From the IMG/VR virus record IMGVR_UViG_3300045988_104087, positions 1-19,332 of that record: a stretch of DNA of 19,332 bases, one strand, 5' to 3'. Under the pieces are notes generated by a model. It had not been told where the DNA came from, ran no database searches, and worked only from the letters and a program-made list of their open reading frames with translations. This stretch comes from a virus (lineage: Duplodnaviria; Heunggongvirae; Uroviricota; Caudoviricetes). The stretch's first letter is position 1, and every line of letters begins with the position of its first letter. A program made the translations under genes and the position numbers. Below, in pieces: positions 1-19,332 of the stretch.

Positions 1-10
1 GCGCCGGATG

Positions 11-3390: not shown

Positions 3391-3394
3391 GGTT

Positions 3395-4374: not shown

Positions 4375-4394
4375 ATGACAATAATGGGGAACAT

Positions 4395-5201: not shown

Positions 5202-5233
5202 CAATCTAATTAGCTCACAAACATAAGACACCT

Positions 5234-5262
5234 TGGCCACGATATTTTATCGTGGCCTTATA
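5234..5262 (+). terminator. Candidate intrinsic terminator of the cargo gene
   Basis: Perfect 9-bp inverted repeat GGCCACGAT-(ATTTT)-ATCGTGGCC at 5234-5256, followed by T/A-rich sequence (TTATATAATAAA), 33 bp after the ORF stop. Confidence 0.45.
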
Positions 5263-5414
5263 TAATAAAGCGACTACCTTCGATGAGTCCTTATAACTCT
5301 CATCCACTGCACATTTTCAAGTTACAATTAAAGTTCATTTAGTTGAAATATAAAAAGGATGCCGCAAGAGGATAATGGCGATATTTCATCAATAAGGCGC
5401 AAGAAATGGCACAA

Positions 5415-5867
5415 CTAACGGTCGAGGTGAGCCAGAATAATCTCTTCAATCATCTGCACATCCTCACCGGTAAAGCCGAGCAGAGGACGCGCCGGATAAT
5501 CAATTTTCTTACCGTCTTTCCGAGTTTCTTCCGACAGACCGAACTGATGCACACTGGCGATTTTCGGTGACTTCCCGCCGTAAAACTCCATTGATGCCTG
5601 TTCCGGGCTGGCGCGGATATGCAAAAAACGACTGGTGATAAGTTTCGCAAACATTTTTCGCTTAACGCGACCGGTCTTTTTTCTGGCGCTCTGCTGCTGG
5701 CGTGGCGCGTAGGGTGTGCCGTCCGGGGCTTTCTGTGCCATCACCCGACGCTGCTGACTCTGCCGCAGACGTTTCGCCAGTTCGGCGCTCAGTCGCCGAC
5801 GCCCTGACGGTGACAGCGATTCAATCAGTCCGGTCAGCCGGTCTTCAAAACGCTTAAACTCATTCAT
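5415..5867 (-). CDS. S: Tail completion protein S
   Basis: 150 aa ORF (MNEFKRFEDRLTGLIESLSPSGRRRLSAELAKRLRQSQQRRV...) recognised as P2 gpS family. Overlaps the R stop. Confidence 0.85.
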   Translation of the reverse strand: MNEFKRFEDRLTGLIESLSPSGRRRLSAELAKRLRQSQQRRVMAQKAPDGTPYAPRQQQSARKKTGRVKRKMFAKLITSRFLHIRASPEQASMEFYGGKSPKIASVHQFGLSEETRKDGKKIDYPARPLLGFTGEDVQMIEEIILAHLDR

Positions 5868-6327
5868 CCCACTTGCTCACCAGTTCGCCATTGATATAAA
5901 GCTCCACCGGGCGGGTGACCGGCTCCGGCGGCGGAGGTTCCGGGATATTCTTCACATGCAGTGCGCCGTCCACCTCACTGACCAGCGTGCGCTCGGTCAG
6001 CATCAGGCTGATACTGATATCAAAGCTGCTGTCATTGTTGATGTCTGCATAAAACGTGAAGCCCTTTTTCTGGCCTTCGTCGGTGGTCATGATGTCGGGC
6101 TGATTTTCCCGCAGCCACGCCAGCACCGGCACAATGAGCAGGTCAAAATCACCGGTAAAGTCGGTCACAATCACATTGAGCGTGTAACGCTTTTCGAATG
6201 ACAGCGACGCCGCCAGTGTGGAGGCAATACTCCCGTTATCCACGAATATCCGCAGCATATCGGGGTTAGTTTTCAGCACCGTGACGGCATCAGTCAGCGC
6301 CCTGCGCAGGCTGTCGGGTTTGAGCAT
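5860..6327 (-). CDS. R: Tail completion protein R
   Basis: 155 aa ORF (MLKPDSLRRALTDAVTVLKTNPDMLRIFVDNGSIASTLAAS...) recognised as P2 gpR family. Confidence 0.85.
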   Translation of the reverse strand: MLKPDSLRRALTDAVTVLKTNPDMLRIFVDNGSIASTLAASLSFEKRYTLNVIVTDFTGDFDLLIVPVLAWLRENQPDIMTTDEGQKKGFTFYADINNDSSFDISISLMLTERTLVSEVDGALHVKNIPEPPPPEPVTRPVELYINGELVSKWDE

Positions 6328-6580
6328 CGTTTTCGTCCTGACAGTGTTTAATCATTTTTACCTGGATGGCACAGCGTGCCAGCGCGTTCTCAAGCTGCCG
6401 GATATCGGCACTTAAATCGCCGTTCGTCTCCGGGTCACTGCCCGGCATCGGGCAAAGACTCACTTTCGGGCAGGCGTTGGCGACAATCACTGGCGTCAGT
6501 GCAGGCGGGGCGCTGGTGCAACCGGCGCACAGCATCAGGCAGGTCAGCACCGTACCAGCGGCGAAAATCTTCGTTTTCAT
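6290..6580 (-). CDS. lysC: o-spanin lipoprotein LysC (Rz1-like), starting inside lysB in another frame
   Basis: The ORF track shows a 135 aa frame. The internal Met at 6580 gives MKTKIFAAGTVLTCLMLCAGCTSAPP..., a lipoprotein signal peptide with lipobox Cys, and a 96 aa product. It starts within lysB in a different frame and ends 38 nt into R. Confidence 0.7.
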   Translation of the reverse strand: MKTKIFAAGTVLTCLMLCAGCTSAPPALTPVIVANACPKVSLCPMPGSDPETNGDLSADIRQLENALARCAIQVKMIKHCQDENDAQTRQPAQGAD

Positions 6581-6860
6581 TGAGTAATCTCGTGATGGTT
6601 TTCTCGCGCTGTGCTTCACGCTTCGCGGCGTTCTCCAGTTCCTGACGCAGAGCCACCTGCGCCAGCTCGTTTTTGTCTGCCCTGGTGAGCGCAACATGAA
6701 GCTGATTTTTCAGCATGGTGATAGTCGTCTGCTGTTCACTGGCGACGTTGTTCGCCCTGTCCAGCGAGGCGCGCAGGCTGACATTTTTATGTTTCACCAG
6801 AAACAGACCGGCCACCGCCAGTGATAACAACACAACCAGCACAGTCATCAGCTTTGACAT
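6435..6860 (-). CDS. lysB: i-spanin LysB (Rz-like)
   Basis: 141 aa ORF with an N-terminal transmembrane segment (MSKLMTVLVVLLSLAVAGLFLV) followed by a charged, helical-looking periplasmic region. Located after lysA in the lysis cassette. Confidence 0.8.
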   Translation of the reverse strand: MSKLMTVLVVLLSLAVAGLFLVKHKNVSLRASLDRANNVASEQQTTITMLKNQLHVALTRADKNELAQVALRQELENAAKREAQREKTITRLLNENEDFRRWYGADLPDAVRRLHQRPACTDASDCRQRLPESESLPDAGQ

Positions 6861-7273
6861 GGTTCCCGCCCCTCAAAACGCTGACGGCAGGCCGTACGTA
6901 TCAGCCGGAAAAACAGCGACGCCACAAGATAAATCAGCGCAGTAAAAATCCACCCGGCAGCGACCAGCGAGATAAACGTCGCCACCATCACCACCAGAGC
7001 CGCCGCCCGTCTGCACCACGGCACCGGCTGCAAAAACAGCGACGTGACAATCTTCACGGCCAGCGATTCCGGCGGCAGCTCCCGCCCGTAGCGTTCCAGC
7101 ACATACTCAGTGGCATACACACCGACACCACCGGCAACCACACAGATAACCGTCGCCAGAATCGCCCAGGTGGCAACAAAACTGACGGCCACGCTCTGCG
7201 GGTAAATCAGGGACAGTGCCAGCATCAGCGCCAGCGACACGTTCAGCATCAGTGAAAGGGATAATTTCTTCAT
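6848..7273 (-). CDS. lysA: Lysis regulatory membrane protein LysA
   Basis: 141 aa ORF with several hydrophobic segments (MKKLSLSLMLNVSLALMLALSLIYPQ...). Position between K and lysB matches P2 lysA. Confidence 0.8.
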   Translation of the reverse strand: MKKLSLSLMLNVSLALMLALSLIYPQSVAVSFVATWAILATVICVVAGGVGVYATEYVLERYGRELPPESLAVKIVTSLFLQPVPWCRRAAALVVMVATFISLVAAGWIFTALIYLVASLFFRLIRTACRQRFEGREPCQS

Positions 7274-7287
7274 GGTGTTTACTCCGT

Positions 7288-7785
7288 TTAAGCCGGTACG
7301 CCGCCAGCGGTACGCCAGACGGTGACCAGTTTTTCCAGTGAATGCTCACGCTGACCGTAACCGGCTCCCGGCAGGGACGCCCAGATATTGCGACAGCGTG
7401 AAATGGCGCGCTCAATGCGTCCCGCCCGGATGTCATCCAGTGCACCGCGTTCGCGGATCAACTGAATGGCAAGTCTGTCCTGTGACAACGGACTGAAATC
7501 CGGCAGGGCAAGTTGTTTGCGGTAATGCGGCCAGAACAGGTAAAGCTGCTGATAGCGACCGGAGGCCGTGGATTTTTCACCGCGACGGTTAAACACCTTC
7601 GCTGGTCGACCATGTGCGAACGGGTGGTCACTGTAGTCGGTGAAAATTTCCGGCTTTCCGTCCAGTCCGGTGACTATCACGTCATAGCCCCGGTTTTTCG
7701 TCAGCGGATGGTTCGCCGTCCCTTCGGACACGGCCAGCATGTCGAGAAAGGCGGCGATATTCTGATGCGTGTTAATAACCGGCAT
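7288..7785 (-). CDS. K: Endolysin (phage lysozyme) K
   Basis: 165 aa ORF (MPVINTHQNIAAFLDMLAVSEGTANHPLTKNRGYDVIVTG...) recognised as the P2 K / lambda R-like endolysin family. Start overlaps the holin stop by one base. Confidence 0.9.
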   Translation of the reverse strand: MPVINTHQNIAAFLDMLAVSEGTANHPLTKNRGYDVIVTGLDGKPEIFTDYSDHPFAHGRPAKVFNRRGEKSTASGRYQQLYLFWPHYRKQLALPDFSPLSQDRLAIQLIRERGALDDIRAGRIERAISRCRNIWASLPGAGYGQREHSLEKLVTVWRTAGGVPA

Positions 7786-8066
7786 TACGGTTTCCCCCTG
7801 CCCTTAAAGCGGCGCTGAATGGCAATCTCAATCACCTGATAACCGGCGATACCCAGCATGGAGCCGATGCCGCACACCGCAGGCAGTGACAGGTCAGGAA
7901 ACTGCACCAGAACAACACCGGCAACCATCGAGACAAAACCACCGAGCAACATGCGCCCGATAAACAGACGCGGGGTGATGGGTTCACCACCGGCAAGCAC
8001 CTTGCCGACAACAATCAGCACCCCAATCATGAAAAGCGACAGGACGCTTTTTTCTTCTGCTGTCAT
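7785..8066 (-). CDS. Y: Holin Y
   Basis: 93 aa ORF with hydrophobic transmembrane segments and a charged C-terminus (..RRFKGRGKP), immediately upstream of the endolysin. Confidence 0.85.
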   Translation of the reverse strand: MTAEEKSVLSLFMIGVLIVVGKVLAGGEPITPRLFIGRMLLGGFVSMVAGVVLVQFPDLSLPAVCGIGSMLGIAGYQVIEIAIQRRFKGRGKP

Positions 8067-8069
8067 GCG

Positions 8070-8273
8070 TTACTCCCACAGATTGACAGTTTCAGCCACG
8101 GGCGCGGTCTGAACGTCGGGCAGTTCGACGGCGGTGCCGTGCGGCAGCACCGCGCCCAGTTCAGCCAGTCCCGGATTTGCGGCGAGCACGGCTTCGACCA
8201 CGCCCTCAGTGCGCCCGTAATACCGGACACAAATGGCGTCGAGCGTGTCGCCCTGTAGCGCAAAGGTCTTCAT
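8070..8273 (-). CDS. X: Tail protein X (LysM-like)
   Basis: Internal Met chosen (MKTFALQGDTLDAICVRYYGRTEGVVEAVLAANPGLAELG...), giving 67 aa. Its ATG overlaps the L stop (ATGA at 8271-8275). Confidence 0.8.
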   Translation of the reverse strand: MKTFALQGDTLDAICVRYYGRTEGVVEAVLAANPGLAELGAVLPHGTAVELPDVQTAPVAETVNLWE

Positions 8274-8782
8274 CAGATTTGACTCACGATGCAGCGCGGC
8301 TTGTCCTGGATGCGCGCCACTGCCCAGCGCATATCCCGCCACAGCTCATCAATGGTGCTGTCAATGCTGTCGGCCTTCTTGTCGCCTTTCGCACTGGCAT
8401 CCACACCGCGATAACGTTCATAAAGTGACGCGGTCGCCATCGCACACACGGCGCGCTCGTAGTAAAAAACTTTGATGCTTTCACCGTCGATGTCGTCCGC
8501 CGGGACGTCCGCCAGACGCGTAAAACCGGCAGCAATTTTCTGTTCGCGGTACTCGTACAGCTCCGCATTCGTTTCAGCCATGCCTGACTTGATGGCCTCA
8601 CGCAGACGGGCGGGGGCGACGCTCTGCTCAAGGCGCATACGTTCCCGGACGCGCTTCGGGTCGATATCGGGAAAAAAGAACGTGTTTTTAATCACCGGCT
8701 CGTCGCCTGCCGGTTGCGGGATGACCACCGTACCCTCACCGGATACAGGAGCCTCCTTTCGCGGAATAATCAGCGTCATCAT
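8273..8782 (-). CDS. L: Head completion/stabilisation protein L
   Basis: Internal Met chosen (MMTLIIPRKEAPVSGEGTVVIPQPAGDEPVIKNTFFFPD...), giving 169 aa, which matches the P2 gpL length I recall. Confidence 0.8.
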   Translation of the reverse strand: MMTLIIPRKEAPVSGEGTVVIPQPAGDEPVIKNTFFFPDIDPKRVRERMRLEQSVAPARLREAIKSGMAETNAELYEYREQKIAAGFTRLADVPADDIDGESIKVFYYERAVCAMATASLYERYRGVDASAKGDKKADSIDSTIDELWRDMRWAVARIQDKPRCIVSQI

Positions 8783-8881
8783 GACTACCTCTGAAAAGTC
8801 GGGCGGTGGACGCCGGTGCAGTGTCAGGTGATTCACCCTCACTGACCGGCGTGCCGCCCTGGCGCGGGGCGCATTCGGTTG

Positions 8882-9625
8882 TTAACTGGCTTTCTTTTTC
8901 GGGCGTCCACGTTTTGCCGGTGTCGCACTCCGGGTCTTACGCGGGGCGCGGGTGGCCGCTTTTAGCTGCGGCTCCGGCTTCGGTTTCAGCTCCCGCTCCA
9001 GTCGTTCAATCTCTTTTTTGACGCCTGCCTGACAGTCGAGCTGTGTCGCACGTTGCAGGTGAGCCAGCGCACCGGCGGCATCACCAGCGTCACGCAGAAA
9101 CAGACCGGTGATTTTGTGCAGCTTTGCGCGTACTTCATCAGGCATGTCAGCCGTGGCGGTCAGTTCGAGGGTGTCCGTCAGCAGGCGGGTATCCACAGAA
9201 TCACCGGCAGCGTGAGCGCGCATGGCCGCGAGCGCCACCTCCTCGGTGAACATGTACGGCGGGGTGCGGCGGTGTTTACCCGGCATGGTCAGACCGTACT
9301 TCAGGGCATAACGGGCAATCTCCAGCGCACCGGCAATATCGCCGGTATCCAGACGCCACAGCATGACCGTCATCAGAATGTCATCCTGTGCACCTTTGCC
9401 CTGCTCCAGCACGCCGTTCACCCACGGCAACCAGAACGGCAGCAGTTCGCGCTTTTTCGCGGCCTTCAGCTCTTTTGAATAAATCGCTTTCAGTGTGCGC
9501 TGGTCTGCGGCCAGCTTGACCAGCATCTGCTCATAGACAGTTGCATGTCGCAGCGGGGCGGCTTCCCGCTGCGCGGTCATCGCTGCCGAGACCCGCATCA
9601 TGTGGCGCTGTGCGGGACTCGTCAT
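8882..9625 (-). CDS. M: Terminase endonuclease (small) subunit M
   Basis: 247 aa ORF (MTSPAQRHMMRVSAAMTAQREAAPLRHATVYEQMLVKLAAD...) with a basic C-terminus. Recognised as P2 gpM family. Lies 4 bp downstream of N. Confidence 0.9.
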   Translation of the reverse strand: MTSPAQRHMMRVSAAMTAQREAAPLRHATVYEQMLVKLAADQRTLKAIYSKELKAAKKRELLPFWLPWVNGVLEQGKGAQDDILMTVMLWRLDTGDIAGALEIARYALKYGLTMPGKHRRTPPYMFTEEVALAAMRAHAAGDSVDTRLLTDTLELTATADMPDEVRAKLHKITGLFLRDAGDAAGALAHLQRATQLDCQAGVKKEIERLERELKPKPEPQLKAATRAPRKTRSATPAKRGRPKKKAS

Positions 9626-9628
9626 CGG

Positions 9629-10702
9629 TTACGCTCCCGGCTCTGCGGTCGCTTTAGCCAGTGTGGAGAAATCACCGACCTTAATTTTTTCCACCAGACA
9701 ACCGGCGGCGTAGTCTTCCACCACGTAATCAATGTTCATTGACTCGTAGTTCTCCACGCGGTCGAGTTTCGGGTTTTCCTCAATCACGCGGCGATGGCTG
9801 TCATCCATGTAGTAGATGGACAGGTTTTCCAGCTTTGTGATGAGCATCGCATCCGCCGGGAAGTACGGGACGCGTACCGCCGGCAGGTTACCGATGCGTT
9901 TCTGGCTGATGATGACGTCAGCGGCCAGCATTTCGCTGTTGTCCTGCTCCTTGTTGACGATGGGAAAATACTTGTCCGCCAGTAGCTGACGCCCCACAAT
10001 CACCACAAGGTCAGGGTCTTCCTGATACCACGGCTCAATCAGGTTGTTGGTCGCATCCATCACCAGTGCATCAAGGCTGGCATAATCACCGCCCTTACCC
10101 ACGCGGATAACCTCAGAGGTGGTGCGGCCTTCCTCGTCAGTGACCTTACTCATCACGCGCGCCGGGGCTTCATTGCGGTATTTCTGCAGCCAGCCGACCG
10201 CCACATCCTGCAGCATCGGATTGCTGCTGCGGTCAGAGGTTTCGGCACGCCTCACGCCGTTAAAACCGGCCATGATTAAATCAAGGGACTGGCGTTTGAT
10301 AATGGCGTTACGGACACGGAGCTGGAAATCCTGATAACGCGCCCACAGGTCCAGCGTTTTGTAGCGGATATAAAAATCGAAGTTAATCTGGTCGCATTCG
10401 TACTTGTTTGACGCCAGCTTCGAGAAGTCCTTCGGCTGACGCTCGGTGCCACCGGCGGTGTCGGTGGTGCTGGCGATGGAGCCGGTGACACCGATGCCAA
10501 TTTTTTCCCCTTTCATTTCGCTGACCGGCACAATGTTGATGCGGGTCAGAAAGTCAGAGGACTCCTGCATGGTGTTCATCAGGGTCTGGGTGACCGACGG
10601 TTCAACGGTGAATTTTTTCGACACATCACCGGCGTCGATGCCGTTCAGTTCGGCAACACGGGACAGGTAGGCATTAAATTTAAAGCGGGTTTCCTGGCGC
10701 AT
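9629..10702 (-). CDS. N: Major capsid protein N
   Basis: 357 aa ORF (MRQETRFKFNAYLSRVAELNGIDAGDVSKKFTVEPSVTQT...) recognised as the P2 gpN major capsid precursor. Confidence 0.95.
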   Translation of the reverse strand: MRQETRFKFNAYLSRVAELNGIDAGDVSKKFTVEPSVTQTLMNTMQESSDFLTRINIVPVSEMKGEKIGIGVTGSIASTTDTAGGTERQPKDFSKLASNKYECDQINFDFYIRYKTLDLWARYQDFQLRVRNAIIKRQSLDLIMAGFNGVRRAETSDRSSNPMLQDVAVGWLQKYRNEAPARVMSKVTDEEGRTTSEVIRVGKGGDYASLDALVMDATNNLIEPWYQEDPDLVVIVGRQLLADKYFPIVNKEQDNSEMLAADVIISQKRIGNLPAVRVPYFPADAMLITKLENLSIYYMDDSHRRVIEENPKLDRVENYESMNIDYVVEDYAAGCLVEKIKVGDFSTLAKATAEPGA

Positions 10703-10760
10703 AGTTTTTCCTGAAATTAAGGGTTAATCGTGAAGGTTTTCCCGGACTGACTGACGCCGG

Positions 10761-11615
10761 TCAGCAGTTCGTCATCAGGGCGTCACCGCCACCACCGGTG
10801 GCCTTGCTGCGGCGCTGCTGGGTCAGACTTTCGGTGTGGTCGAGACTGTTTTTCAGGCGGGTGAATGCCTGGCTGGTTTCATCCGCCCTGTCAGTCACAT
10901 CCTGCTTAAGTGCGGAAAAAGCGGTTTCCATCTCAGCGAGGCGCTGCTCAGTGGCGCTCAGTTTTTCCTGCACATGTTCAGCAACAGCGGTCACCGCTTC
11001 ATGCACGTCATTCAGACGGGCGTCATCGCTGGCCTGTTTGCGGCCAAAAATGGATTTCACCTTTTCGGTCAGGGCGGTGAACACGGTTTCAGGCAGGTCT
11101 TCAAATTCCAGCTCAACGGGCGTTGCCACTGAAATCAGGTTTTCAGGGCTTAATTTGAAGCGGTTCAGGGGGTTGTGTTTTGCCGTGCGGCAGAATTCCA
11201 GGTATTCCGTGCCGAGGCTTGCCGGGTCATCGGTGACGGCCAGACCCACCAGATAACATTTGCCGGTATTGGCAAAGTTCGGCTGAATTTCCATTGAGGT
11301 ATAGACCTTCTGCGCGGCCTTGTTCATCGCGATAAGGTCATCGGTCGGGGTGATTTTCGCAAACAGCGCCCATTTGCCTTTCAGCGCCGAATCATCGTCA
11401 ATCTTTTCGGCCTTCAGTTCGACCACATCGCCATAACGCTTAAAAATACCGTCAGGCAGGACGCCGCGCAGATGTTCCAGGTTAATGCGGCAACCATAGA
11501 CTCGCGGGTCAAAGGTTTCGGCCATTTCCTGAATATCCTGCGCACTGATGACACGCCCGTCACAGGTGTCACCCTCAACGCCGATACGAAAGAATTTTGA
11601 GACTTTTTTTGCCAT
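10761..11615 (-). CDS. O: Capsid scaffolding protein O
   Basis: Internal Met chosen (MAKKVSKFFRIGVEGDTCDGRVISAQDIQEMAETFDPRVYG...), giving 284 aa, which matches the P2 gpO length I recall. The 306 aa version in the ORF track probably over-extends the N-terminus. Confidence 0.85.
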   Translation of the reverse strand: MAKKVSKFFRIGVEGDTCDGRVISAQDIQEMAETFDPRVYGCRINLEHLRGVLPDGIFKRYGDVVELKAEKIDDDSALKGKWALFAKITPTDDLIAMNKAAQKVYTSMEIQPNFANTGKCYLVGLAVTDDPASLGTEYLEFCRTAKHNPLNRFKLSPENLISVATPVELEFEDLPETVFTALTEKVKSIFGRKQASDDARLNDVHEAVTAVAEHVQEKLSATEQRLAEMETAFSALKQDVTDRADETSQAFTRLKNSLDHTESLTQQRRSKATGGGGDALMTNC

Positions 11616-11788
11616 TGTCAGGAGTCCTGAATAGTGATTAGAGGAGTCACATGTCGGCATCAGTTTCCCGACGATGCGCATCCTCCGCCATCAGTCCCGG
11701 ATGGCTTATCACTGACACAACAGCACCTTAGCGAATCGCGGGGCGCGACTCAGTAGCCTTGCCGTGTATTCATCACGGCGAGGTATTC
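11616..11788. promoter_or_regulatory. Divergent O/P intergenic region; expected site of the two late promoters
   Basis: 173 bp non-coding gap between the divergently transcribed O (minus) and P (plus) genes. Contains the inverted repeat CCGTG-N7-CACGG at 11762-11778 and a GAGG Shine-Dalgarno before the P ATG. The promoters themselves were not mapped. Confidence 0.4.
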
Positions 11789-13561
11789 ATGACCATCACC
11801 ACAGACACCACTCTTTTACACGACCCGCGTCGTCAGGCGGCGCTGCTGTACTGGCAGGGATTTTCCGTGCCGCAGATTGCCGCCATGTTGCAGATGAAAC
11901 GCCCGACGGTGCAGAGCTGGAAACAGCGCGACGGCTGGGACAGCGTTGCCCCCATCAGCCGTGTCGAAATGAGTCTGGAAGCGCGGCTGACCCAGCTCAT
12001 CATCAAACCGCAGAAAACCGGCGGTGACTTCAAGGAAATTGACCTGCTCGGACGCCAGATTGAACGACTGGCACGGGTAAACCGTTACAGTCAGACCGGC
12101 AACGAGGCAGACCTTAATCCGAACGTCGCTAACCGCAACAAAGGCGGGCGGCGCAAACCGAAAAAGAATTTTTTCAGTGACGAGGCCATCGAAAAGCTGG
12201 AGCAGATTTTCTTTGAGCAGTCTTTCGAATATCAGTTGCACTGGTATCGCGCCGGGCTTGAGCACCGCATCCGCGATATCCTGAAATCCCGCCAGATTGG
12301 CGCAACGTTTTATTTTTCCCGCGAGGCGCTGCTGCGCGCCCTGAAAACCGGCCATAACCAGATTTTTCTGTCGGCCAGTAAAACGCAGGCGTATGTGTTC
12401 CGCGAATACATCATCGCCTTTGCCCGTCTGGTTGACGTTGACCTGACCGGTGACCCGATTGTCCTGGGCAATAACGGCGCAAAACTGATTTTTCTCGGCA
12501 CCAACTCCAACACCGCGCAGAGCCATAACGGCGACCTGTACGTCGACGAGATTTTCTGGATCCCGAATTTTCAGGTACTGCGTAAGGTGGCATCAGGTAT
12601 GGCCTCACAGAGCCACCTGCGCTCGACCTATTTCTCCACCCCGTCCACGCTGGCGCACGACGCCTACCCGTTCTGGTCGGGTGAACTGTTTAACCGGGGA
12701 CGCGCCAGCGCCGCCGAACGCGTGGAAATCGACGTCAGTCATAACGCCCTTGCCGGAGGTCTTCTCTGTGCGGACGGCCAGTGGCGGCAGATTGTCACCA
12801 TTGAGGACGCCCTGAAAGGCGGCTGCACGCTGTTCGACATTGAGCAGCTCAAACGTGAAAACAGCGCCGACGATTTTAAAAACCTGTTCATGTGTGAATT
12901 TGTTGACGACAAGGCGTCGGTGTTCCCGTTCGAGGAGCTGCAACGCTGCATGGTCGACACGCTGGAAGAATGGGAAGACTATGCGCCGTTTGCCGCCAAT
13001 CCGTTCGGCTCCCGCCCGGTCTGGATTGGTTACGACCCGTCACACCGTGGCGACAGCGCCGGATGCGTGGTACTGGCACCGCCGGTGGTGGCCGGTGGCA
13101 AATTCAGAATACTTGAGCGTCACCAGTGGAAAGGCATGGACTTTGCCACTCAGGCGGAATCCATCCGCAAACTCACCGAAAAATACAACGTCGAATACAT
13201 CGGAATTGATGCCACCGGCCTCGGTGTCGGCGTGTTCCAGCTCGTGCGCTCGTTCTATCCCGCCGCGCGCGATATCCGCTACACGCCGGAAATGAAAACC
13301 GCAATGGTGCTCAAGGCAAAAGACGTTATCCGCCGTGGCTGTCTGGAATATGACGTCAGCGCCACCGACATCACCAGCTCGTTCATGGCTATCCGCAAGA
13401 CCATGACCAGCAGCGGACGCAGCGCCACCTATGAGGCCAGCCGCAGCGAGGAAGCCAGCCACGCCGACCTCGCCTGGGCGACCATGCACGCCCTGTTAAA
13501 TGAGCCACTCACCGCCGGTATCAGCACCCCGCTGACATCCACCATTCTGGAGTTTTACTGA
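11789..13561 (+). CDS. P: Terminase ATPase (large) subunit P
   Basis: The ORF track shows 600 aa from 11759. I chose the Met at 11789 (MTITTDTTLLHDPRRQAALLYWQGFSVPQIAAMLQ...), giving 590 aa, with GAGG five bases upstream. Stop overlaps the Q start (TGATG). Confidence 0.9.
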   Translation: MTITTDTTLLHDPRRQAALLYWQGFSVPQIAAMLQMKRPTVQSWKQRDGWDSVAPISRVEMSLEARLTQLIIKPQKTGGDFKEIDLLGRQIERLARVNRYSQTGNEADLNPNVANRNKGGRRKPKKNFFSDEAIEKLEQIFFEQSFEYQLHWYRAGLEHRIRDILKSRQIGATFYFSREALLRALKTGHNQIFLSASKTQAYVFREYIIAFARLVDVDLTGDPIVLGNNGAKLIFLGTNSNTAQSHNGDLYVDEIFWIPNFQVLRKVASGMASQSHLRSTYFSTPSTLAHDAYPFWSGELFNRGRASAAERVEIDVSHNALAGGLLCADGQWRQIVTIEDALKGGCTLFDIEQLKRENSADDFKNLFMCEFVDDKASVFPFEELQRCMVDTLEEWEDYAPFAANPFGSRPVWIGYDPSHRGDSAGCVVLAPPVVAGGKFRILERHQWKGMDFATQAESIRKLTEKYNVEYIGIDATGLGVGVFQLVRSFYPAARDIRYTPEMKTAMVLKAKDVIRRGCLEYDVSATDITSSFMAIRKTMTSSGRSATYEASRSEEASHADLAWATMHALLNEPLTAGISTPLTSTILEFY

Positions 13562-14595
13562 TGAGCAAGAAAAAAGGGAAAACACCGCAACCTGCGGCAA
13601 AAACAATGACCGCCAGCGCCCCGAAAATGGAGGCATTCACCTTTGGTGAGCCGGTGCCGGTACTCGACCGCCGTGACATTCTGGATTACGTCGAGTGCAT
13701 CAGTAACGGCAGATGGTATGAGCCGCCGGTCAGCTTTACCGGTCTGGCAAAAAGCCTGCGTGCTGCCGTGCATCACAGCTCACCGATTTACGTTAAACGC
13801 AATATTCTGGCCTCGACATTTATCCCGCATCCGTGGCTTTCGCAACAGGATTTCAGCCGCTTTGTGCTGGATTTTCTGGTGTTCGGTAATGCGTTTCTGG
13901 AAAAGCGTTACAGCACCACCGGTAAGGTCATCAGACTGGAAACCTCACCGGCAAAATATACCCGCCGTGGCGTGGAGGAGGATGTTTACTGGTGGGTGCC
14001 GTCCTTCAACGAGCCGACACCTTTCACGCCCGGCTCAGTATTTCACCTGCTGGAGCCCGATATTAATCAGGAGCTGTACGGCCTGCCGGAATATCTCAGC
14101 GCCCTTAACTCTGCCTGGCTGAATGAATCGGCCACACTGTTCCGCCGCAAGTATTACGAAAATGGCGCACATGCCGGATACATCATGTACGTCACCGATG
14201 CCGTGCAGGATCGCAACGATATCGAAATGCTTCGCGAAAACATGGTCAAGTCGAAAGGCCGCAACAACTTTAAAAATCTGTTTCTCTATGCCCCGCAGGG
14301 GAAAGCCGACGGCATTAAAATTATCCCGCTCAGTGAAGTGGCAACGAAGGACGTTTTTTTTAATATCAAAAAAGCCAGCGCCGCTGACCTGCTGGACGCG
14401 CACCGCATCCCCTTTCAGTTGATGGGCGGCAAGCCGGAGAACGTCGGGTCGCTGGGTGATATTGAGAAAGTGGCAAAGGTCTTTGTCCGCAATGAGCTTA
14501 TCCCGTTACAGGACAGGATCCGCGAGATAAACGGCTGGCTCGGTCAGGAGGTCATCCGCTTTAAAAACTACTCACTGGACACTGACAACGGCTGA
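13561..14595 (+). CDS. Q: Portal protein Q
   Basis: 344 aa ORF (MSKKKGKTPQPAAKTMTASAPKMEAFTFGEPVPVLDRRD...) recognised as the P2 gpQ portal family. Last gene before cos. Confidence 0.9.
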   Translation: MSKKKGKTPQPAAKTMTASAPKMEAFTFGEPVPVLDRRDILDYVECISNGRWYEPPVSFTGLAKSLRAAVHHSSPIYVKRNILASTFIPHPWLSQQDFSRFVLDFLVFGNAFLEKRYSTTGKVIRLETSPAKYTRRGVEEDVYWWVPSFNEPTPFTPGSVFHLLEPDINQELYGLPEYLSALNSAWLNESATLFRRKYYENGAHAGYIMYVTDAVQDRNDIEMLRENMVKSKGRNNFKNLFLYAPQGKADGIKIIPLSEVATKDVFFNIKKASAADLLDAHRIPFQLMGGKPENVGSLGDIEKVAKVFVRNELIPLQDRIREINGWLGQEVIRFKNYSLDTDNG

Positions 14596-14600
14596 ATATC

Positions 14601-14622
14601 GCCGCCTGCGGGCGGCTTTTTT
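14601..14622 (+). terminator. Intrinsic terminator after Q
   Basis: GCCGCC-(TGCG)-GGCGGC hairpin followed by TTTTTT, immediately 3' of the Q stop codon. Confidence 0.5.
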
Positions 14623-14764
14623 ACAACCCGCCATCACGCCCTCACACGCTCACCACCGCACAAAATAGCCCGCAGACACACCAACGCCCCTGCAGGCCGA
14701 CTAAATGCCATCACGACGCGCTCAGACGCTGAAAAAATAAAATCAGCACCACCGCCAGCGCGCA

Positions 14765-14783
14765 GTGCTTTCCCCGCCTCGCC
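14765..14783. other. cos site (19-nt cohesive-end sequence of P2-type phages)
   Basis: GTGCTTTCCCCGCCTCGCC at 14765-14783 is the reverse complement of GGCGAGGCGGGGAAAGCAC, which I recall as the P2 cohesive end. It lies about 170 bp past the Q stop, where cos is expected. Confidence 0.6.
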
Positions 14784-15183
14784 CGCCCGCTTCACGGGGC
14801 GGTTTTAATGCAGTTGCATAGATACTATGGATCCGCACCAGTCCTGACCGCACGCAGCCTGAACGGACATCCCCAACGCATGCAAAAACATTCACTTGTT
14901 GCATGCATAGCTTTTTAAGTACGCCATACCGCAACTGTACATTTTTAAGCAATTGGCAACTTTAAAAAATTTACATTGCTTTCAAGACCTTATCATCCGT
15001 AGTCTCTGTTTTTTACTTTGAGCTACATCAATAAAATCTCAAACATGTTTAATGCAAAGCCCTTGTTACACAACATAGAATGTATGTCTAGAAACAACGA
15101 CATACTATATGTTGTGTTTTTCCGGTTCTCTGTTCGGTGATATGCCAAATCACTTTGCGTTTAAACAGAGCATTATTTCAGGG

Positions 15184-15198
15184 CAAGACTTCGCTCAA
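15184..15198. repeat. Direct repeat CAAGACTTCGCTCAA, copy 1
   Basis: Exact 15-mer, repeated at 15448-15462. The two copies bracket the small peptide gene and its terminator. Confidence 0.6.
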
Positions 15199-15261
15199 AA
15201 GTCATTCCACCTAAGAAGCGCATATACCGGTGGAAGTTGCCCTCTACTTACAGGAGGCAAT

Positions 15262-15375
15262 ATGAAGAAATGCTATTACTGCATTCTCGTTCTGGCCCTC
15301 TTTGGCTATCCAAACGGTAGTCCGAGTGGTTTGTCAGTAAACGTCAGTAATATCAATGTCAGCATTATGCTTTAA
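15262..15375 (+). CDS. Small hydrophobic peptide (37 aa), hypothetical
   Basis: ATG at 15262 preceded by a strong Shine-Dalgarno AGGAGG at 15252-15257 (4-nt spacer). Product MKKCYYCILVLALFGYPNGSPSGLSVNVSNINVSIML, stop TAA. A strong terminator follows 20 bp downstream. The 88-codon frame from 15109 has no ribosome-binding site. Confidence 0.35.
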   Translation: MKKCYYCILVLALFGYPNGSPSGLSVNVSNINVSIML

Positions 15376-15394
15376 TATGCTTCAAACAAAAAAA

Positions 15395-15417
15395 CCACCT
15401 GCCAGGGTGGTTTTTTT
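15395..15417. terminator. Intrinsic terminator, possibly bidirectional
   Basis: A-run (15388-15394), then CCACC-(TGCCAG)-GGTGG hairpin, then TTTTTTT (15411-15417). The flanking A and T tracts allow termination in either direction. Confidence 0.6.
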
Positions 15418-15447
15418 GCGCCCATCATCAATACGATGAAAGACTGA

Positions 15448-15462
15448 CAAGACTTCGCTCAA
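15448..15462. repeat. Direct repeat CAAGACTTCGCTCAA, copy 2
   Basis: Exact copy of the 15-mer at 15184-15198, about 31 bp downstream of the terminator. Confidence 0.6.
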
Positions 15463-15677
15463 GACGAATTATGCGTCGACATAAGGTTACCCGCAATGAT
15501 TTTATTAGACTAAATGGATGGCCTTTTATGACCCGGATCAAACGGCTGTCCTTACCGACATGCTAGTCACTCAATAGCATTTAGCCTTCTAATTCAGCAT
15601 GCTATTGACCTTCTGCTGCCCCATAACTGCTCCGCATAAGCCATTCAATGCCATATCAAATTACGTTGTGTTTTTAC

Positions 15678-17954
15678 TCAAATGGGTAACGAGAACCCCG
15701 GCCACTCATCAGCGACCGGATATCTGAATTTTTTCCCGTCATAATGTACGGTTGCCCCACGCGCCAGCGCCTCAATCTCCCATCGCTGCGGCCTGATACC
15801 GTTCTGAGCAAGGTCAACGCGGATACGGGTAATTTGCGTTCGTTCCGACCGGGTCAGTCTGGCCGATGGCGCTATTTCATGCGGTTTTAACGGGCTTCCG
15901 CTTCTTTGCTGACGGTTTGGTGTTCTCAGGTCGTGTTTTAATGCGCCCCTGAGCGCCCTCACGACCTCCGGTTCATTCCATTCAATAACACCGTCATCAA
16001 CCAGATTAAGCACTGCTGCGGCGTGTTCAGAAGGTGTGGGTGCCGGTAACGAAGCATCACTACCGGTGAGCTTTCCACAGTTATTGACAGGACTCCGAGG
16101 CGCGGCGATGCCGCTTTTTAAAGTCAAAGGCTCAACGACCGGAACTTTCGGCACAATGCGCCAGTCCGTCGTTCTGGTGATATGAATATGACGCGCGCCG
16201 AGATGCGGCGCGTAAATGCCGACCACTCTCTCGACTTCTTCCTCGTACTCGTTAACGTCATCCGACGGGCTACGGGCGACCCTGACAGTCTGGCAATCGC
16301 GCGGGACATTTGCCCCGCCCTGCGCGCTGATATACAACGCAAAATCACCACTGTCTGCAGCGGCGCGTGCAGCCTCGACGCGCTCGTCAAACTCATCAGC
16401 AATGCTGACGCCGCGAGGCAATTTGCGTAGTTCACGGTAAGCCCCCATTGTCGGCAGTCCAACCGTTTTAAATTGCGGGATGCGCCACGTTGACGCCCAT
16501 GCGGTAACAGCCGCGGCAGTATCTTTAAGCGGCTTACCGGTATCGTTATCGAGCTGACCATCCAGTGCATAGCCGTCGATATTTTTTGAAATGTATTTCG
16601 CGATATATCCCGCAGCACCGCCCCGGTTAAGGTGCTTTGCCTGAAAACGGTTTCGCGCGGCTCCTCTTTCGTCACCATCCTCTTTGAGCGCATAGCGACG
16701 CATGATTTCGATAATCTGGTTACGCTGGCGTGGATTACAAAAAAGCATCATATGCCAGTGCGGCGTTCCGTCGTGGTGTGGCTCGACGACACGCAAACCG
16801 TAGACCTGTAAATCATTATCCTTGAATGCCGTGCGCATCAGGCTCCAGATACGGCAGAGATAACGCTGCGCATCCTTTGGATTAAATGCCTCATCGTTCC
16901 AGCCGTGATTAAGCTGAACGGTTTTACTTTCGCCTTTTCTGACCTGACGAGTCGGGTGATACTTTGACGGCGCGGTCAGCGTGATAAACATCCCCACATC
17001 ACCCTCTGCGGCGGCGTAACGCTCAATACCGGCGATGGTGTTCATCAGCTCCATCCGGCGAATTTCAGGATTAGAAATACTGCCCATCACCTTACTGATA
17101 AGGTCGATGCGCTCGCCGGTTTCCCTGTTTTCAAGGTCACACGATTTAAGAAATTCCAGATTTGCCTGGCGGCGTGCACGCACATCACGAATGGCATGTT
17201 TACTGGCATAAGGAGAACGGTCTTTATTCACCTCCCCGACAGCTATCAGTAACGCCTCATGCCAGCGCATACGCTGGCCTTTAAGCTGATGAGTCCACCA
17301 CTCATCGTTAAACAGGCGGGCAATGGCAGAATATGCCTGCCTCGTGGTCATCTGCCCTTTACGGTATTTTTTCCAGTAAAGCGGGGAAATATTGAAAGCA
17401 CGTGCAGCGCCAGCAACATGACCATACAGATGTGCCTGCGCCTCATCCGTAAACAGCGATTCTTTTTCGCCATGCGCATCCACCCAGGCATCGCAGAGTT
17501 CCTCATACATCATGAAAAGCTGCGATGAGATACGGGCAGCAAACTTTTTCAGCTCCTTGTCATTCATTCCCGGCAGGCGCGCATAGTGGTCACGCTCTGC
17601 CAGAAACAGCAACGACGCGTCGGTGTTCATTTCATGGCGCTGATTCACGCGCTTAATGCGCGGCCATAAACGACGCTGAAAAGTGGATGTGAGGAAATAA
17701 AACCCGTGCACCGGGCTTTTATTGCGCCGGATGTAGTCATAGCGTGAAGTAAACAGCGAGCGCAAAAAGTAAGGCAGGCGGTTAATCGTGGATAAAACAC
17801 CTTGCACCTGACGCATCTCGTCACGTGTAAGAGGTCTTTCGCGCCCGACAGCCTCGCGTGGCGCGTTCCATGCATAAGCACCGGTAAACGCCTTACCGGT
17901 GCCTGCGGCAAATGCTGACGGAGGGACAAAACGCCCGGAGGCTTTAACGGCCAT
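15678..17954 (-). CDS. A: Replication initiation protein A (rolling-circle nicking endonuclease)
   Basis: 772-codon frame. I chose the internal Met (MAVKASGRFVPPSAFAAGTGKAFTGAYAWNAPREA...) at 17954, giving 758 aa. Contains the rolling-circle tyrosine motif (GYIAKYISKNIDGY). The start overlaps the stop of the upstream small ORF by 11 nt. Confidence 0.9.
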   Translation of the reverse strand: MAVKASGRFVPPSAFAAGTGKAFTGAYAWNAPREAVGRERPLTRDEMRQVQGVLSTINRLPYFLRSLFTSRYDYIRRNKSPVHGFYFLTSTFQRRLWPRIKRVNQRHEMNTDASLLFLAERDHYARLPGMNDKELKKFAARISSQLFMMYEELCDAWVDAHGEKESLFTDEAQAHLYGHVAGAARAFNISPLYWKKYRKGQMTTRQAYSAIARLFNDEWWTHQLKGQRMRWHEALLIAVGEVNKDRSPYASKHAIRDVRARRQANLEFLKSCDLENRETGERIDLISKVMGSISNPEIRRMELMNTIAGIERYAAAEGDVGMFITLTAPSKYHPTRQVRKGESKTVQLNHGWNDEAFNPKDAQRYLCRIWSLMRTAFKDNDLQVYGLRVVEPHHDGTPHWHMMLFCNPRQRNQIIEIMRRYALKEDGDERGAARNRFQAKHLNRGGAAGYIAKYISKNIDGYALDGQLDNDTGKPLKDTAAAVTAWASTWRIPQFKTVGLPTMGAYRELRKLPRGVSIADEFDERVEAARAAADSGDFALYISAQGGANVPRDCQTVRVARSPSDDVNEYEEEVERVVGIYAPHLGARHIHITRTTDWRIVPKVPVVEPLTLKSGIAAPRSPVNNCGKLTGSDASLPAPTPSEHAAAVLNLVDDGVIEWNEPEVVRALRGALKHDLRTPNRQQRSGSPLKPHEIAPSARLTRSERTQITRIRVDLAQNGIRPQRWEIEALARGATVHYDGKKFRYPVADEWPGFSLPI
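16084..16103 (-). other. Candidate origin/nick site inside gene A
   Basis: The minus strand reads GCGCCTCGGAGTCCTGTCAA, which resembles the P2 ori/A-protein cleavage region as I remember it. P2 ori is known to lie within the A coding sequence. From memory only. Confidence 0.3.
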
Positions 17955-18219
17955 ATGAGCCAAATGCCTCAGAACAACGCTTGCTGAGTTGCTCAACCTG
18001 CGCGTTTAAATCAGCAAAAGACTTTGCGCTTCCGGTCAGAATATCGTGATGCATCAGGCCGGAAACGAGCTGGCTTAATTTCGGGTAATAACCAACCACC
18101 GCCAGCCATTCCTGACCGGCGTTTTTACCGCTTTCCGCTCTCTTTTTCTCGTGGAGAATAAACTGAAAGCTGTCACTGGTAACGACATAACGTTCGCCAA
18201 TTTCGATACGAATACTCAT
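17944..18219 (-). CDS. Small early protein (position of P2 orf83), hypothetical
   Basis: 91 aa ORF immediately upstream of A, overlapping it. Tightly packed in the early operon B-orf80-orf81-orf82-orf83-A. Confidence 0.7.
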   Translation of the reverse strand: MSIRIEIGERYVVTSDSFQFILHEKKRAESGKNAGQEWLAVVGYYPKLSQLVSGLMHHDILTGSAKSFADLNAQVEQLSKRCSEAFGSYGR

Positions 18220-18440
18220 GCCATTCTCCGGTAATGCTTGTTTTTTGCTTCAAAGACTGACTGGCAGGAAACACAACGCGTGGCTGACGGATAAGCTGCA
18301 CGACGGGCAGCAGGTATTGGCGCGTCACACTCTTCGCAAACCAGCGCAGAAACACCGCAATGTTTTACCCTTGCCGCGTTAATCTGGCGCTCCAGTAATT
18401 CAGCCTGTTGTTCCTGAATAAAATCTACGTTGTCCGGCAT
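18216..18440 (-). CDS. C4 zinc-finger protein, TraR/DksA-like (position of P2 orf82)
   Basis: 74 aa ORF with CxxC-N17-CxxC (CGVSALVCEECDAPIPAARRAAYPSATRCVSCQ), typical of phage TraR/DksA-family zinc fingers. 4-bp overlap with the next gene. Confidence 0.7.
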   Translation of the reverse strand: MPDNVDFIQEQQAELLERQINAARVKHCGVSALVCEECDAPIPAARRAAYPSATRCVSCQSVFEAKNKHYRRMA

Positions 18441-18745
18441 TACCAGCTCCTTTTGTCGTTCAGCTTCTTAAATTCATCAGCGCAATAGCTGGCGATTTCT
18501 GTCGTTAATTTTGTCAGTTCATCCACGGATGAAATTTGCTTATGAAATACAGCGCGTTTAACAAGTAAATTGACCACATCAGACAGGAGGTTTAATTCAT
18601 TCTGATAAATCGCGATAACAGATTCAGTTATGTCGCGTTTTTCTTTATCAAGACAAAGTTGAATAAGAGACAAATCGCCATTTTCCATAACGGCGATTTT
18701 TAAGGCGTTATTCAGTAATACAACTGAATGAGAACAGGACATCAA
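18440..18745 (-). CDS. Small early protein (position of P2 orf81), hypothetical
   Basis: 101 aa ORF. Starts and stops overlap its neighbours (operon packing). AT-richer than its neighbours. Confidence 0.65.
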
Positions 18746-18966
18746 AGCACCTCCCCGCGAGACAATCCGATATTGTGAAATTTTTCCGACTCCTGACTGA
18801 GCAGCTCGACTATCTCCACGCGGGATAACTCCGCCTTTGTGATGTGGCGAATCATGGTGTCAAGATGAGAAGAAAAGCGCGTCGCAGCGTCAGCCTGTGC
18901 TTCGGTTCTGGCCTGTTGCAGCAGTAATGCGTATTTACCGCACTGATTTTCAGAAACTGTATGCAT
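18742..18966 (-). CDS. Small early protein (position of P2 orf80), hypothetical
   Basis: 74 aa ORF. 4-bp overlap with the downstream gene. Confidence 0.6.
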
Positions 18967-19029
18967 GACTTTCTCCAGGCAAAAAGAAGCCCCGCACGAT
19001 TAAGTGCGTTAAAAACTCTGGTTAATTAT

Positions 19030-19332
19030 TTAATGCAGATATTGCTCTGGTTTTACCGACGTCAGAATTGTCGGTGCATACTCAAACAGGCTGAATAATT
19101 CACGTAATGCACGGAATAAAGCATCACGCCAGTAACATGACTCTTCATTAATTCGCCAGTATGGCTGGTTGAATTCTTTTTCAGTCAATCCGGCATGCAT
19201 AAATAAAGTACGACGCTGACTGACTGTTAAAAAACTAATATATGCATACTCACTTGCGCCAACCTGACGGCGTTTTGAGAATGCCCCACGCAATTCATCA
19301 ATTGCACAAACCAGCCGTTCACGTTCGACGTC
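19030..19332 (-). CDS. B: Replication protein B, 3' portion (truncated by the window edge)
   Basis: The open frame continues to the window edge. Its position upstream of the four small ORFs and A matches P2 gene B. I do not recognise the sequence itself with certainty. Confidence 0.5.
   Translation of the reverse strand, partial: DVERERLVCAIDELRGAFSKRRQVGASEYAYISFLTVSQRRTLFMHAGLTEKEFNQPYWRINEESCYWRDALFRALRELFSLFEYAPTILTSVKPEQYLH

Follow-up and report, generated by a model that had tools for sequence, protein, structure and literature searches.

Introduction

In the par locus of plasmid pAD1 of Enterococcus (Fst; RNA I and RNA II), the RNAs of toxin and antitoxin converge on a single bidirectional terminator that serves both, and because of direct repeats in the DNA the antitoxin can pair through its 5′ region with the 5′ part of the toxin mRNA. 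In the enterobacterial type I systems tisB/istR-1, zorO/orzO, shoB/ohsC and dinQ/agrB a complementarity of ~16–21 nt lies in a long leader, far upstream of a structured, sequestered ribosome-binding site (RBS), and the toxin promoter is condition-specific, depending on LexA for tisB and dinQ; one source for this comparison is the ZorO–OrzO paper (PMC3919570). TimP, encoded at the ryfA locus of Salmonella and E. coli by a gene that long went unannotated, is a 38–41 aa peptide with a signal-like hydrophobic N-terminus and an Asn/Ser-rich tail, and its partner TimR is a small RNA (sRNA) that is encoded nearby and pairs with the 5′ untranslated region (UTR) rather than being a fully overlapping antisense RNA (PMC7667032). 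Here we describe a locus that shares features with all of these. It lies in a 19,332-nt stretch of viral DNA (IMG/VR record IMGVR_UViG_3300045988_104087, positions 1 to 19,332; hereafter the window), a P2-like (Peduovirus) prophage whose locus is identical to that of E. coli NCTC9040. The locus is centred on an open reading frame (ORF) of 37 codons, pointed out in a first-pass annotation made from the letters of the window. We consider it probable that this ORF and its surroundings form a self-contained module of two RNAs, of the type I toxin–antitoxin (TA) kind, carried by mobile elements.

As judged from its sequence, the architecture combines the par/Fst layout, leader targeting of the tisB and zorO type, a peptide of TimP-like shape and a promoter derived from that of nrdD. 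The anatomy of par/Fst is also that of the module: convergent RNAs, a shared bidirectional terminator and direct repeats giving 5′ complementarity. However, par has two pairs of repeats and the module one, and the target in par is the initiation region, whereas in the module it lies 65–80 nt upstream of the start codon; the Fst Pfam family is not matched, and the hosts of the module are Gram-negative. Complementarity of a similar kind far upstream of a sequestered RBS, a long leader and a condition-specific toxin promoter (FNR-type in the module) are shared with the tisB and dinQ group. In that group, in contrast, the sRNA genes are divergent or tandem and not convergent with a shared terminator, the toxins are single transmembrane helices of other sequence, and none has an nrdD-derived promoter.

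The peptide, for which TimP is the one comparable toxin, and the predicted nearby, UTR-pairing sRNA resemble TimP/TimR, which is likewise a system missed by annotation. TimR is divergent and upstream, whereas the sRNA of the module is convergent and shares its terminator; TimP/TimR is a locus of the core chromosome, whereas the module is found on mobile elements and has a promoter of the nrdD/FNR type. Homology of the two peptides was considered and rejected: BLASTP gave no alignment, and Smith–Waterman scores against shuffled sequences reached p = 0.08–0.12. Finally, the FNR-activated, NrdR-repressed promoter of E. coli nrdDG shares with the module ~100 bp of homology, both FNR boxes, the position of the −10 element and an NrdR-like box containing ATATGTTGT. 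In the module it drives a 37-codon ORF, the homology stops past the second NrdR-like box, and the NrdR-like boxes lie about one helical turn further downstream.

Results

A conserved gene for a small hydrophobic peptide

Relatives of the locus were drawn from annotated phages, complete E. coli genomes, viral contigs, metagenomes, species-representative genomes and plasmids, with a profile-free search of 1.8 billion proteins as an additional source. They form seven lineages: two P2-type clades, ~85% identical to each other over the locus (the window clade and a second clade), and five more, with ~25% DNA divergence. The block conserved between lineages, ~14962–15500, measures ~540 bp, far more than the ORF alone, and comprises an nrdD-like promoter, a structured leader, the ORF, a bidirectional terminator and a predicted minus-strand sRNA (Table 1). 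Features of type I TA systems recognizable in the sequence are a gene for a small (<60 aa) hydrophobic protein, an adjacent predicted sRNA complementary to the mRNA, and a structured mRNA with a sequestered RBS.

The 37-codon frame is intact in all complete copies among ~50 P2-type loci examined. The same length is found in the Citrobacter lineage, in two Klebsiella types and in an inovirus-linked lineage; in one lineage the insertion of a codon, in frame, brings the total to 38. Of the 14 variable sites in the P2-type ORF, 11 are third codon positions and no second position is affected (binomial p = 7e-4), and family-wide the variable columns divide 18/14/31 among the three codon positions (p = 0.023). 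Thirteen residues are invariant (M......CILVL.L.GYP....S..S...S), eight of them encoded by more than one codon. Stops interrupt both other reading frames. The window ORF ends with TAA at 15373–15375, and the GGAGG of its Shine–Dalgarno sequence (SD) is kept in every lineage. As far as the comparative data reach, translation of the ORF is under purifying selection, which acts on the protein sequence.

The first-pass annotation had proposed a genuine gene for a small hydrophobic peptide, on the grounds that an AGGAGG four bases before the ATG and a terminator behind the stop were unlikely to be accidental, and had held that frameshifts or stops in relatives would speak against it. The proposal is borne out. 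Both signals are present, with the A-tract of the terminator beginning 11 nt past the stop and its G+C core 18 nt past it, frame and length are held across the diverged lineages with a whole codon as the sole indel, substitutions are of the coding type with a third-position bias, and no complete P2-type copy examined is broken. Its remark that nothing else in the accessory locus looks protein-coding also agrees with our data, as no other conserved ORF exists in 14596–15677. A longer in-frame reading of 88 aa (15109–15375) is not conserved, as the second P2 clade has a TAG within it.

Conservation of the region could in principle come from RNA structure, the plus-strand transcript being non-coding and the ORF fortuitous. 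The stretch that holds the ORF folds as a long hairpin in which some synonymous changes keep the structure, copies of the P2 type show little synonymous divergence, and gene callers almost never call the ORF. This explanation is nonetheless highly improbable, given 37 codons held across seven lineages with one indel, of a whole codon; an end that is preserved at the same place by TAA, TAG and differently placed stop contexts; invariant residues with alternative codons, the third-position excess and the stops in other frames; and a strong, conserved SD at ideal spacing.

The predicted peptide begins with a signal-sequence-like hydrophobic N-terminus, MKK-CYYCILVLALFG, followed by an invariant core of GYP and two further serines. 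By inspection, MKK would be its n-region, and 12 residues of h-region, a break at Pro/Gly and an S-x-S motif that is conserved come after it; the 15-residue tail alternates polar and hydrophobic residues. The corresponding peptide is MNKWHYCILVLALFGYPTGSQSGWSLTVSHISISFIM in the Citrobacter/Enterobacter plasmid lineage, MNR[LV]CLCILVLTLFGYPVGSQSGWS[VI][NY]VSHINVNISL in the two Klebsiella plasmid types, and MKRLYHCILVLALIGYPVGSQSNWSVTVSQVSINVSL and MNRWHYCILVLALFFGYPVDNQSGLSLNISHVSVNILL in the loci adjoining inovirus genes, the last with one extra codon. The hydrophobic N-terminal stretch and the polar, Ser/Asn-rich tail reported earlier are both there. The likeness to small membrane toxins or regulatory peptides that had been drawn from size and hydrophobicity is supported; the shape is TimP-like, and the hydrophobic stretch is shorter than the helices of classical type I toxins. 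Judged from its sequence, the peptide most likely either inserts into the inner membrane or is exported through it.

One phage record calls the ORF a hypothetical protein, and the gene is otherwise nearly invisible to annotation: among 5.8 billion collected proteins there are just two to four entries for it, most of them mis-extended. In the NCBI protein P0002 (68 aa) the normal stop near the C-terminus is lost and the frame runs through the terminator. Protein P0001 carries the substitution C4F; residue 4 varies across lineages too.

A predicted convergent sRNA gene and a shared terminator

A search for an antisense RNA on the opposite strand, suggested in the first-pass annotation, led to a predicted sRNA gene that converges on the ORF and whose RNA would start with a stretch complementary to the peptide mRNA leader. 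Every lineage retains the promoter hexamers of this gene, with TTGCGG or TTGCGA at −35 and CATAAT at −10. The 17-nt length of the spacer is constant while its sequence diverges freely, and the distance from the −10 element to the core of the pairing region (the seed) is fixed at 8 nt. This pattern of hexamers, spacer and distance is, at the level of sequence, the footprint of a σ70 promoter, and the minus strand is probably transcribed from it. The position of the promoter places the 5′ end of the RNA at ~15460, so the seed would be its extreme 5′ end. A promoter-like site on the plus strand, 15444–15472, was rejected: its −35 element is not conserved in the second clade, whereas the overlapping minus-strand hexamers are conserved.

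The predicted sRNA consists of a single-stranded 5′ seed (15460–15446), a hairpin (15443–15421) and the terminator hairpin with a U-tail; the centroid fold leaves its 5′ 22 nt unpaired. The hairpin is retained with unrelated sequences in different lineages, with seven compensatory pairs, several of them G·U on the minus strand only. In 7/7 sequences it is more stable on the minus strand than on the plus strand.

The terminator is built on a perfect 13-nt inverted repeat, CAAAAAAACCACC (15387–15399) and GGTGGTTTTTTTG (15406–15418), with flanking A- and T-runs. It folds as a 14-bp hairpin on either strand and is nearly invariant in all lineages. A simple consensus terminator scan did not list it; the T-run is probably absorbed into the A/T-extended stem.

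A short ORF with a terminator close behind also recalls attenuation, in which the ORF would be a leader peptide controlling the terminator, and with it read-through antisense to the phage replication gene A that lies beyond. Weak, sub-threshold Rfam matches to leader-type models, centred on the terminator, point the same way. We find this scarcely credible. No same-strand gene lies downstream in any context, and gene A cannot be the target since the plasmid and inovirus loci described below have different neighbours. The coordinates suggest that a ribosome at the stop codon would reach the A-tract only and not the G+C stem, and it is the protein sequence that is conserved, not merely the act of translation.

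Complementarity of the predicted sRNA and the mRNA leader

An exact 15-nt direct repeat, CAAGACTTCGCTCAA, occurs at 15184–15198, in the leader, and at 15448–15462, past the terminator, the two copies being 264 bp apart. Two matches to the repeat arose in 0/200 shuffles. Read on the minus strand, the second copy is antisense to the leader. In every lineage the predicted sRNA and the leader can form a contiguous duplex of 14–18 bp, with energies from −25.6 to −33.5 kcal/mol, compared to ~−16 ± 2.5 kcal/mol for shuffled seeds. A 12-nt seed core is invariant in both copies; the flanking pairs vary yet remain paired. They are G·U and G-C in the window, G-C and G·U in the second clade, G-C/G-C/U-A in the Citrobacter and Klebsiella lineages, and A-U/G-C/U-A/G-C in lineage L063, where a G-to-A change is carried by both copies of the repeat. 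In lineage L064 a U·G pair lies within the core of the duplex.

The ORF and the sRNA gene always occur together, even in relatives found through the peptide alone. We conclude that two genes which are always co-inherited have a predicted intermolecular complementarity and promoter footprints that are conserved and covarying.

Both copies of the repeat are direct on the DNA, 264 bp apart, and their invariant cores would be explained equally well by conservation at the DNA level. They might then be sites for a DNA-binding protein, or a scar of duplication or recombination around a cassette of ORF and terminator, with no functional sRNA. We regard this as very unlikely. Decay would be expected of a scar, but the core has stayed invariant across lineages with 25% divergence. 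The second copy stands 8 nt from a conserved −10 element, with the −35 element 17 nt further, on the antisense strand, and a conserved hairpin and terminator then follow. In addition, what the flanks keep is Watson–Crick or wobble pairing and not identity, as seen from the G·U pair of the window and the U·G pair of L064.

E. coli strain 439 (L049; NZ_CP183084.1) carries a natural recombinant, in which promoter, leader and ORF come from the second clade, whereas all sequence right of the terminator belongs to the window clade. The crossover is exactly at the bidirectional terminator.

A predicted structured leader and masked ribosome-binding site

The predicted peptide mRNA is ~330 nt long, and its whole fold has an energy of −98 kcal/mol (z = −4.9). 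In the P2-type alignment 14 of 40 variable columns are in paired positions, which make up 61% of sites, and most such changes keep the pairing. Compensatory A-U to G-C changes are seen at 15140/15150 in hairpin Pa and at 15209/15231 in hairpin P3. The P3 loop, GAAGCGCA, is constant across lineages although its stem varies.

The SD is predicted to be held in a local hairpin with an anti-SD sequence. Across lineages the anti-SD pair 15238/15259 appears as U-A, U·G and C-G, with one C·A break. The predicted probability that the SD is unpaired is 0.04–0.34 in all lineages and at three transcript lengths, mostly through the local anti-SD hairpin.

A switch model, in which binding of the sRNA frees the UUGCCC of helix P1, which then sequesters the SD, was assessed by partition-function folding at three transcript lengths. 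Both helices are formable in all lineages. The model in this form was not supported, as the SD was mostly paired with or without the target blocked.

A GAAG within the P3 loop might base-pair with CUUC in the predicted target of the sRNA. By analogy with timP, a pseudoknot or competing interaction at this loop is possible.

A promoter homologous to that of nrdD

The origin of the plus-strand promoter had been missed in the first-pass annotation. A locus matching 14962–15063 occurs in 5426/5426 complete E. coli genomes, between treC and nrdD. On sequence, the promoter of the module is a homologue of the nrdD promoter with its FNR boxes. The two boxes and the −10 element are present in all seven lineages, the upstream box being retained at its position in 7/7, and the centres of the boxes are 31 bp apart, as in the nrdD promoter. 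The FNR sites of nrdDG were reportedly placed at −64.5 and −33.5 by Boston and Atlung in 2003. In the window clade the downstream box is degraded from TTGAT to TTAAT. Transcription of the plus strand is predicted to start near 15088–15089. FNR is a regulator of class III ribonucleotide reductase genes (PMC4009431), and the boxes suggest that the module may be controlled by FNR, and possibly by NrdR.

The region also holds two NrdR-box-like palindromes. They match the NrdR consensus at 13/16 and 14/16 positions. The second, ATACTATATGTTGTGT, resembles the nrdDG box in a published E. coli NrdR-binding probe (PMC12176259). Start to start, the boxes of the window stand 34 bp apart; the second P2 clade has 32 bp, and the canonical value is 31–32 bp. 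The difference is due to a 2-nt insertion at 15084–15085 in the window clade (ATGTATGTC compared to ATGCA--ACC). Together with the degraded downstream FNR box, this change of spacing suggests that regulation may differ between the two P2 clades. L063 lacks the second NrdR-like box, and the Klebsiella and Citrobacter lineages have it displaced. For a hairpin followed by a T-run at 15068–15123, readings as a terminator and as a short sRNA of its own were considered and rejected; the two palindromes explain it better.

Salmonella plasmids of ~67–92 kb (H264–H266), and likewise H204–H206, match the promoter part only (query positions 77/79–152/167), so nrdD-type promoter segments may exist on other mobile elements without the ORF.

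Table 1. Positions of the module, its predicted elements and the flanking phage genes in the window
Feature	Coordinates	Strand	Basis
ORF, 37 codons (stop codon included in coordinates), encoding MKKCYYCILVLALFGYPNGSPSGLSVNVSNINVSIML	15262–15375	+	sequence and comparative analysis
SD AGGAGG, 4-nt spacer CAAT to ATG (15262–15264)	15252–15257	+	read from sequence
Predicted sRNA, ~75 nt	15386–15460	−	fold z = −4.0
Predicted σ70 promoter of sRNA: −35 TTGCGG (15496–15491), 17-nt spacer, −10 CATAAT (15473–15468)	15468–15496	−	
Bidirectional intrinsic terminator common to mRNA and predicted sRNA	15387–15418	both	inverted repeat and folding
Predicted sRNA target, 66–80 nt upstream of AUG	15182–15196	+	direct repeat and duplex analysis
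Predicted structured 5′ leader, ~175 nt	15089–15261	+	folding and consensus structure
Leader hairpin Pa	15128–15170	+	predicted fold
Leader helix P1	15180–15186 / 15237–15243	+	predicted fold
Leader hairpin P3, conserved loop GAAGCGCA	15205–15235	+	predicted fold
Anti-SD/SD hairpin: UUGCCCUCU (15237–15245) paired with AGGAGGCAA (15252–15260)	15237–15260	+	folding and covariation
Segment homologous to the E. coli treC–nrdD intergenic region (nrdD promoter region)	14962–15063	+	78–80% identity
Upstream FNR-like box TTGAGCTACATCAA (consensus TTGAT-N4-ATCAA)	15018–15031	+	identical to E. coli K-12 nrdD box in alignment
Downstream FNR-like box TTAATGCAAAGCCC, weakened in window lineage	15049–15062	+	alignment; relatives TTGATGCAAA(T/A)CAC
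Predicted −10 TAGAAT (TAAAAT in relatives and nrdD)	15076–15081	+	starts 21 bp after centre of downstream FNR box, as in nrdD
NrdR-box-like palindromes ACACAACATAGAATGT (15068–15083) and ATACTATATGTTGTGT (15102–15117)	15068–15117	+	together a 10-nt inverted repeat
Portal gene Q	end 14595		
Replication endonuclease gene A	end 15678	−	

Distribution on prophages and plasmids

The module is present in 150 of the 5426 complete E. coli genomes (~3%), on the chromosome every time; carriers include the W derivative KO11FL and the enterotoxigenic E. coli (ETEC) strain E24377A. Each P2-like prophage examined has the module directly against the 3′ end of gene A, with differing cargo on the other side. 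There is none in the window; in other carriers (L005, L050 and L051 were compared) it consists of ImmA/IrrE with hypothetical proteins, an AAA ATPase with a hypothetical protein (ETEC E24377A), or a SIR2 protein. PLSDB gave 414 plasmid matches, 394 of them from Klebsiella, mostly conjugative plasmids of the IncFIB/IncFII types. The great majority of the 414 carry the whole unit, in unrelated neighbourhoods, and their hosts include Klebsiella, Enterobacter and Citrobacter. The two most divergent members adjoin Zot and secretin genes of filamentous prophages (inovirus). These varied neighbourhoods indicate that the module moves independently of its neighbours, and the P2 frame in which the first-pass annotation placed it was too narrow.

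A scan of species-representative genomes with the repeat pattern found one true homologue, in Citrobacter. A match in a metagenome-assembled genome of Muribaculaceae (contig L053) was dismissed as due to chance; it is a tandem repeat inside an unrelated coding region. A scan of genome contigs with a pattern derived from the peptide gave no match. Plasmid pKPN3 of K. pneumoniae MGH 78578, the strain of a study by differential RNA-seq (dRNA-seq) and by RNA interaction by ligation and sequencing (RIL-seq), does not carry the module in its first 150 kb; the scan covered this plasmid of the strain and stopped 26 kb short of its end.

In K. pneumoniae plasmid pGN-2 (L055, 6161–8508; IncFIB/IncHI1B, liver abscess) a cluster for a 3′–5′ exonuclease, an MPN/JAB protein and a ThiF-family protein, with the look of a defence system, lies ~1.6 kb from the module; the PLSDB gene table is incomplete there.

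Comparison with known families

The peptide matched no Pfam or NCBIfam family at E ≤ 10, the Fst and Hok/Gef families included, and its sole match in PHROGs was insignificant (E = 0.34). In Rfam no family rose above noise over the region, OrzO and IstR included, and there were only weak matches centred on the terminator. The ryfA covariance model (RF00126) gave no match at the gathering threshold or at E ≤ 10. PADLOC, in a scan limited to the proteins neighbouring the Citrobacter copy, matched none.

Discussion

From these features the best-supported course of events can be outlined. The promoter copied from nrdD, with two FNR boxes and NrdR-like boxes, would drive the ~330-nt mRNA, in which the SD is held in structure, and FNR would raise its transcription in anoxia. 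A constitutive-looking σ70 promoter would drive the ~75-nt sRNA, ending at the shared terminator. The first 14–18 nt of the sRNA would pair with the leader ~65–80 nt upstream of the AUG and block translation or destabilise the mRNA, like IstR-1 on tisB and OrzO on zorO. As in those two systems, pairing so far upstream might stop ribosome loading or trigger cleavage. When the sRNA is lost or outpaced (by loss of the element, shut-off of transcription by a phage, or strong anoxic induction through FNR), the peptide would be made, and once made would damage or modify the membrane. Transcription of both RNAs, repression by the sRNA and a role in addiction or abortive infection are thus suggested by the layout of the locus, and toxicity of the peptide by analogy with the systems compared.

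Several points weigh against this reading. The case for toxicity is one of analogy. At ~13 residues, the hydrophobic stretch falls short of the transmembrane helices found in Hok, TisB, Ldr and Zor proteins and looks rather like a signal sequence; the single precedent for a signal-like toxin, TimP, permits growth when derepressed at its native level (PMC7667032). Blocking the sRNA target leaves the predicted accessibility of the SD unchanged. As the seed core is invariant in both copies, the covariation is confined to two to four flanking pairs. The NrdR-like boxes of the window are 2 bp off the canonical spacing, and the second is missing or shifted in some lineages. Sequence diversity is modest, with seven lineages. 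Full-text searches for the peptide and seed strings returned no paper, and expression data were not found.

The main rival of the toxin reading is that the peptide is a non-toxic accessory protein, anchored in the membrane or exported, that modulates a protein or process of the host envelope under anoxia (lysogenic or plasmid conversion); the sRNA would then fine-tune it, with no part in addiction or defence. The short, signal-sequence-like hydrophobic segment fits such a protein, as does the behaviour of TimP, which has the same overall shape. An FNR-type promoter suggests a physiological, condition-specific role, and many small membrane proteins are regulators (PMC12648545). We judge it rather unlikely. 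The module occurs only on mobile elements, of three unrelated kinds and in varied contexts, which is typical of selfish and defence modules, and repression in several layers (a paired SD, a dedicated antisense sRNA and a compact mRNA) is characteristic of harmful products.

Returning to the two-RNA TA-like module, we tentatively propose, as a conjecture that may well not hold in full, that it represents a new type I TA family common to P2-like phages, IncF plasmids of Klebsiella, Enterobacter and Citrobacter, and filamentous prophages. The copied nrdD promoter might read oxygen status through FNR, and possibly deoxynucleoside triphosphate (dNTP) status through NrdR, and so time the production of a membrane-active or exported peptide. 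In P2, where it lies at the edge of the defence hotspot, it could serve abortive infection or addiction in a way tuned to the anoxic gut. In a more remote variant of this conjecture, the signal-like N-terminus might be cleaved and the conserved, β-strand-like tail of 15 residues released to the periplasm as an effector or signal. If the toxin–antitoxin reading is right, an unannotated gene pair is carried by ~3% of complete E. coli genomes and by ~400 sequenced, mostly conjugative Klebsiella plasmids, and it could affect plasmid and prophage stability, persistence and phage resistance under anoxia, as in the gut. The wiring of such a family would be unusual, with a promoter borrowed from nrdD, convergent RNAs sharing a terminator in a Gram-negative host and a TimP-like, signal-resembling peptide. 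The module, which is widespread on clinically relevant plasmids and at a phage defence hotspot, illustrates what is lost when annotation omits sRNA genes and ORFs of <50 codons.

The prophage hotspot

In the window the module lies in the interval from Q to A, 14596–15677, which is the gpA–gpQ ‘tin/old’ hotspot; as a sign of a defence role this position is circumstantial. Within the interval, GTGCTTTCCCCGCCTCGCC, at 14765–14783, is presumably the reverse complement of the 19-nt cos sequence of P2, in which case the accessory interval proper is ~14784–15677 and is mostly filled by the module. The RefSeq annotation of the interval in this prophage holds zero genes. The gpA–gpQ hotspot was described by Rousset et al. 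as a reservoir of anti-phage systems (PMC9122126), and a 2026 survey found no P2 genome with both main defence hotspots free of genes (PMC13586616); gpA–gpQ, the one looked at in this prophage, is one of those two. Protein-based surveys would score it as empty here, despite the conserved module. To the left of the module, in a variable stretch that is not shared with the other clade, lies an 11-nt inverted repeat, GCATGCAAAAA / TTGTTGCATGC, at 14878–14906.

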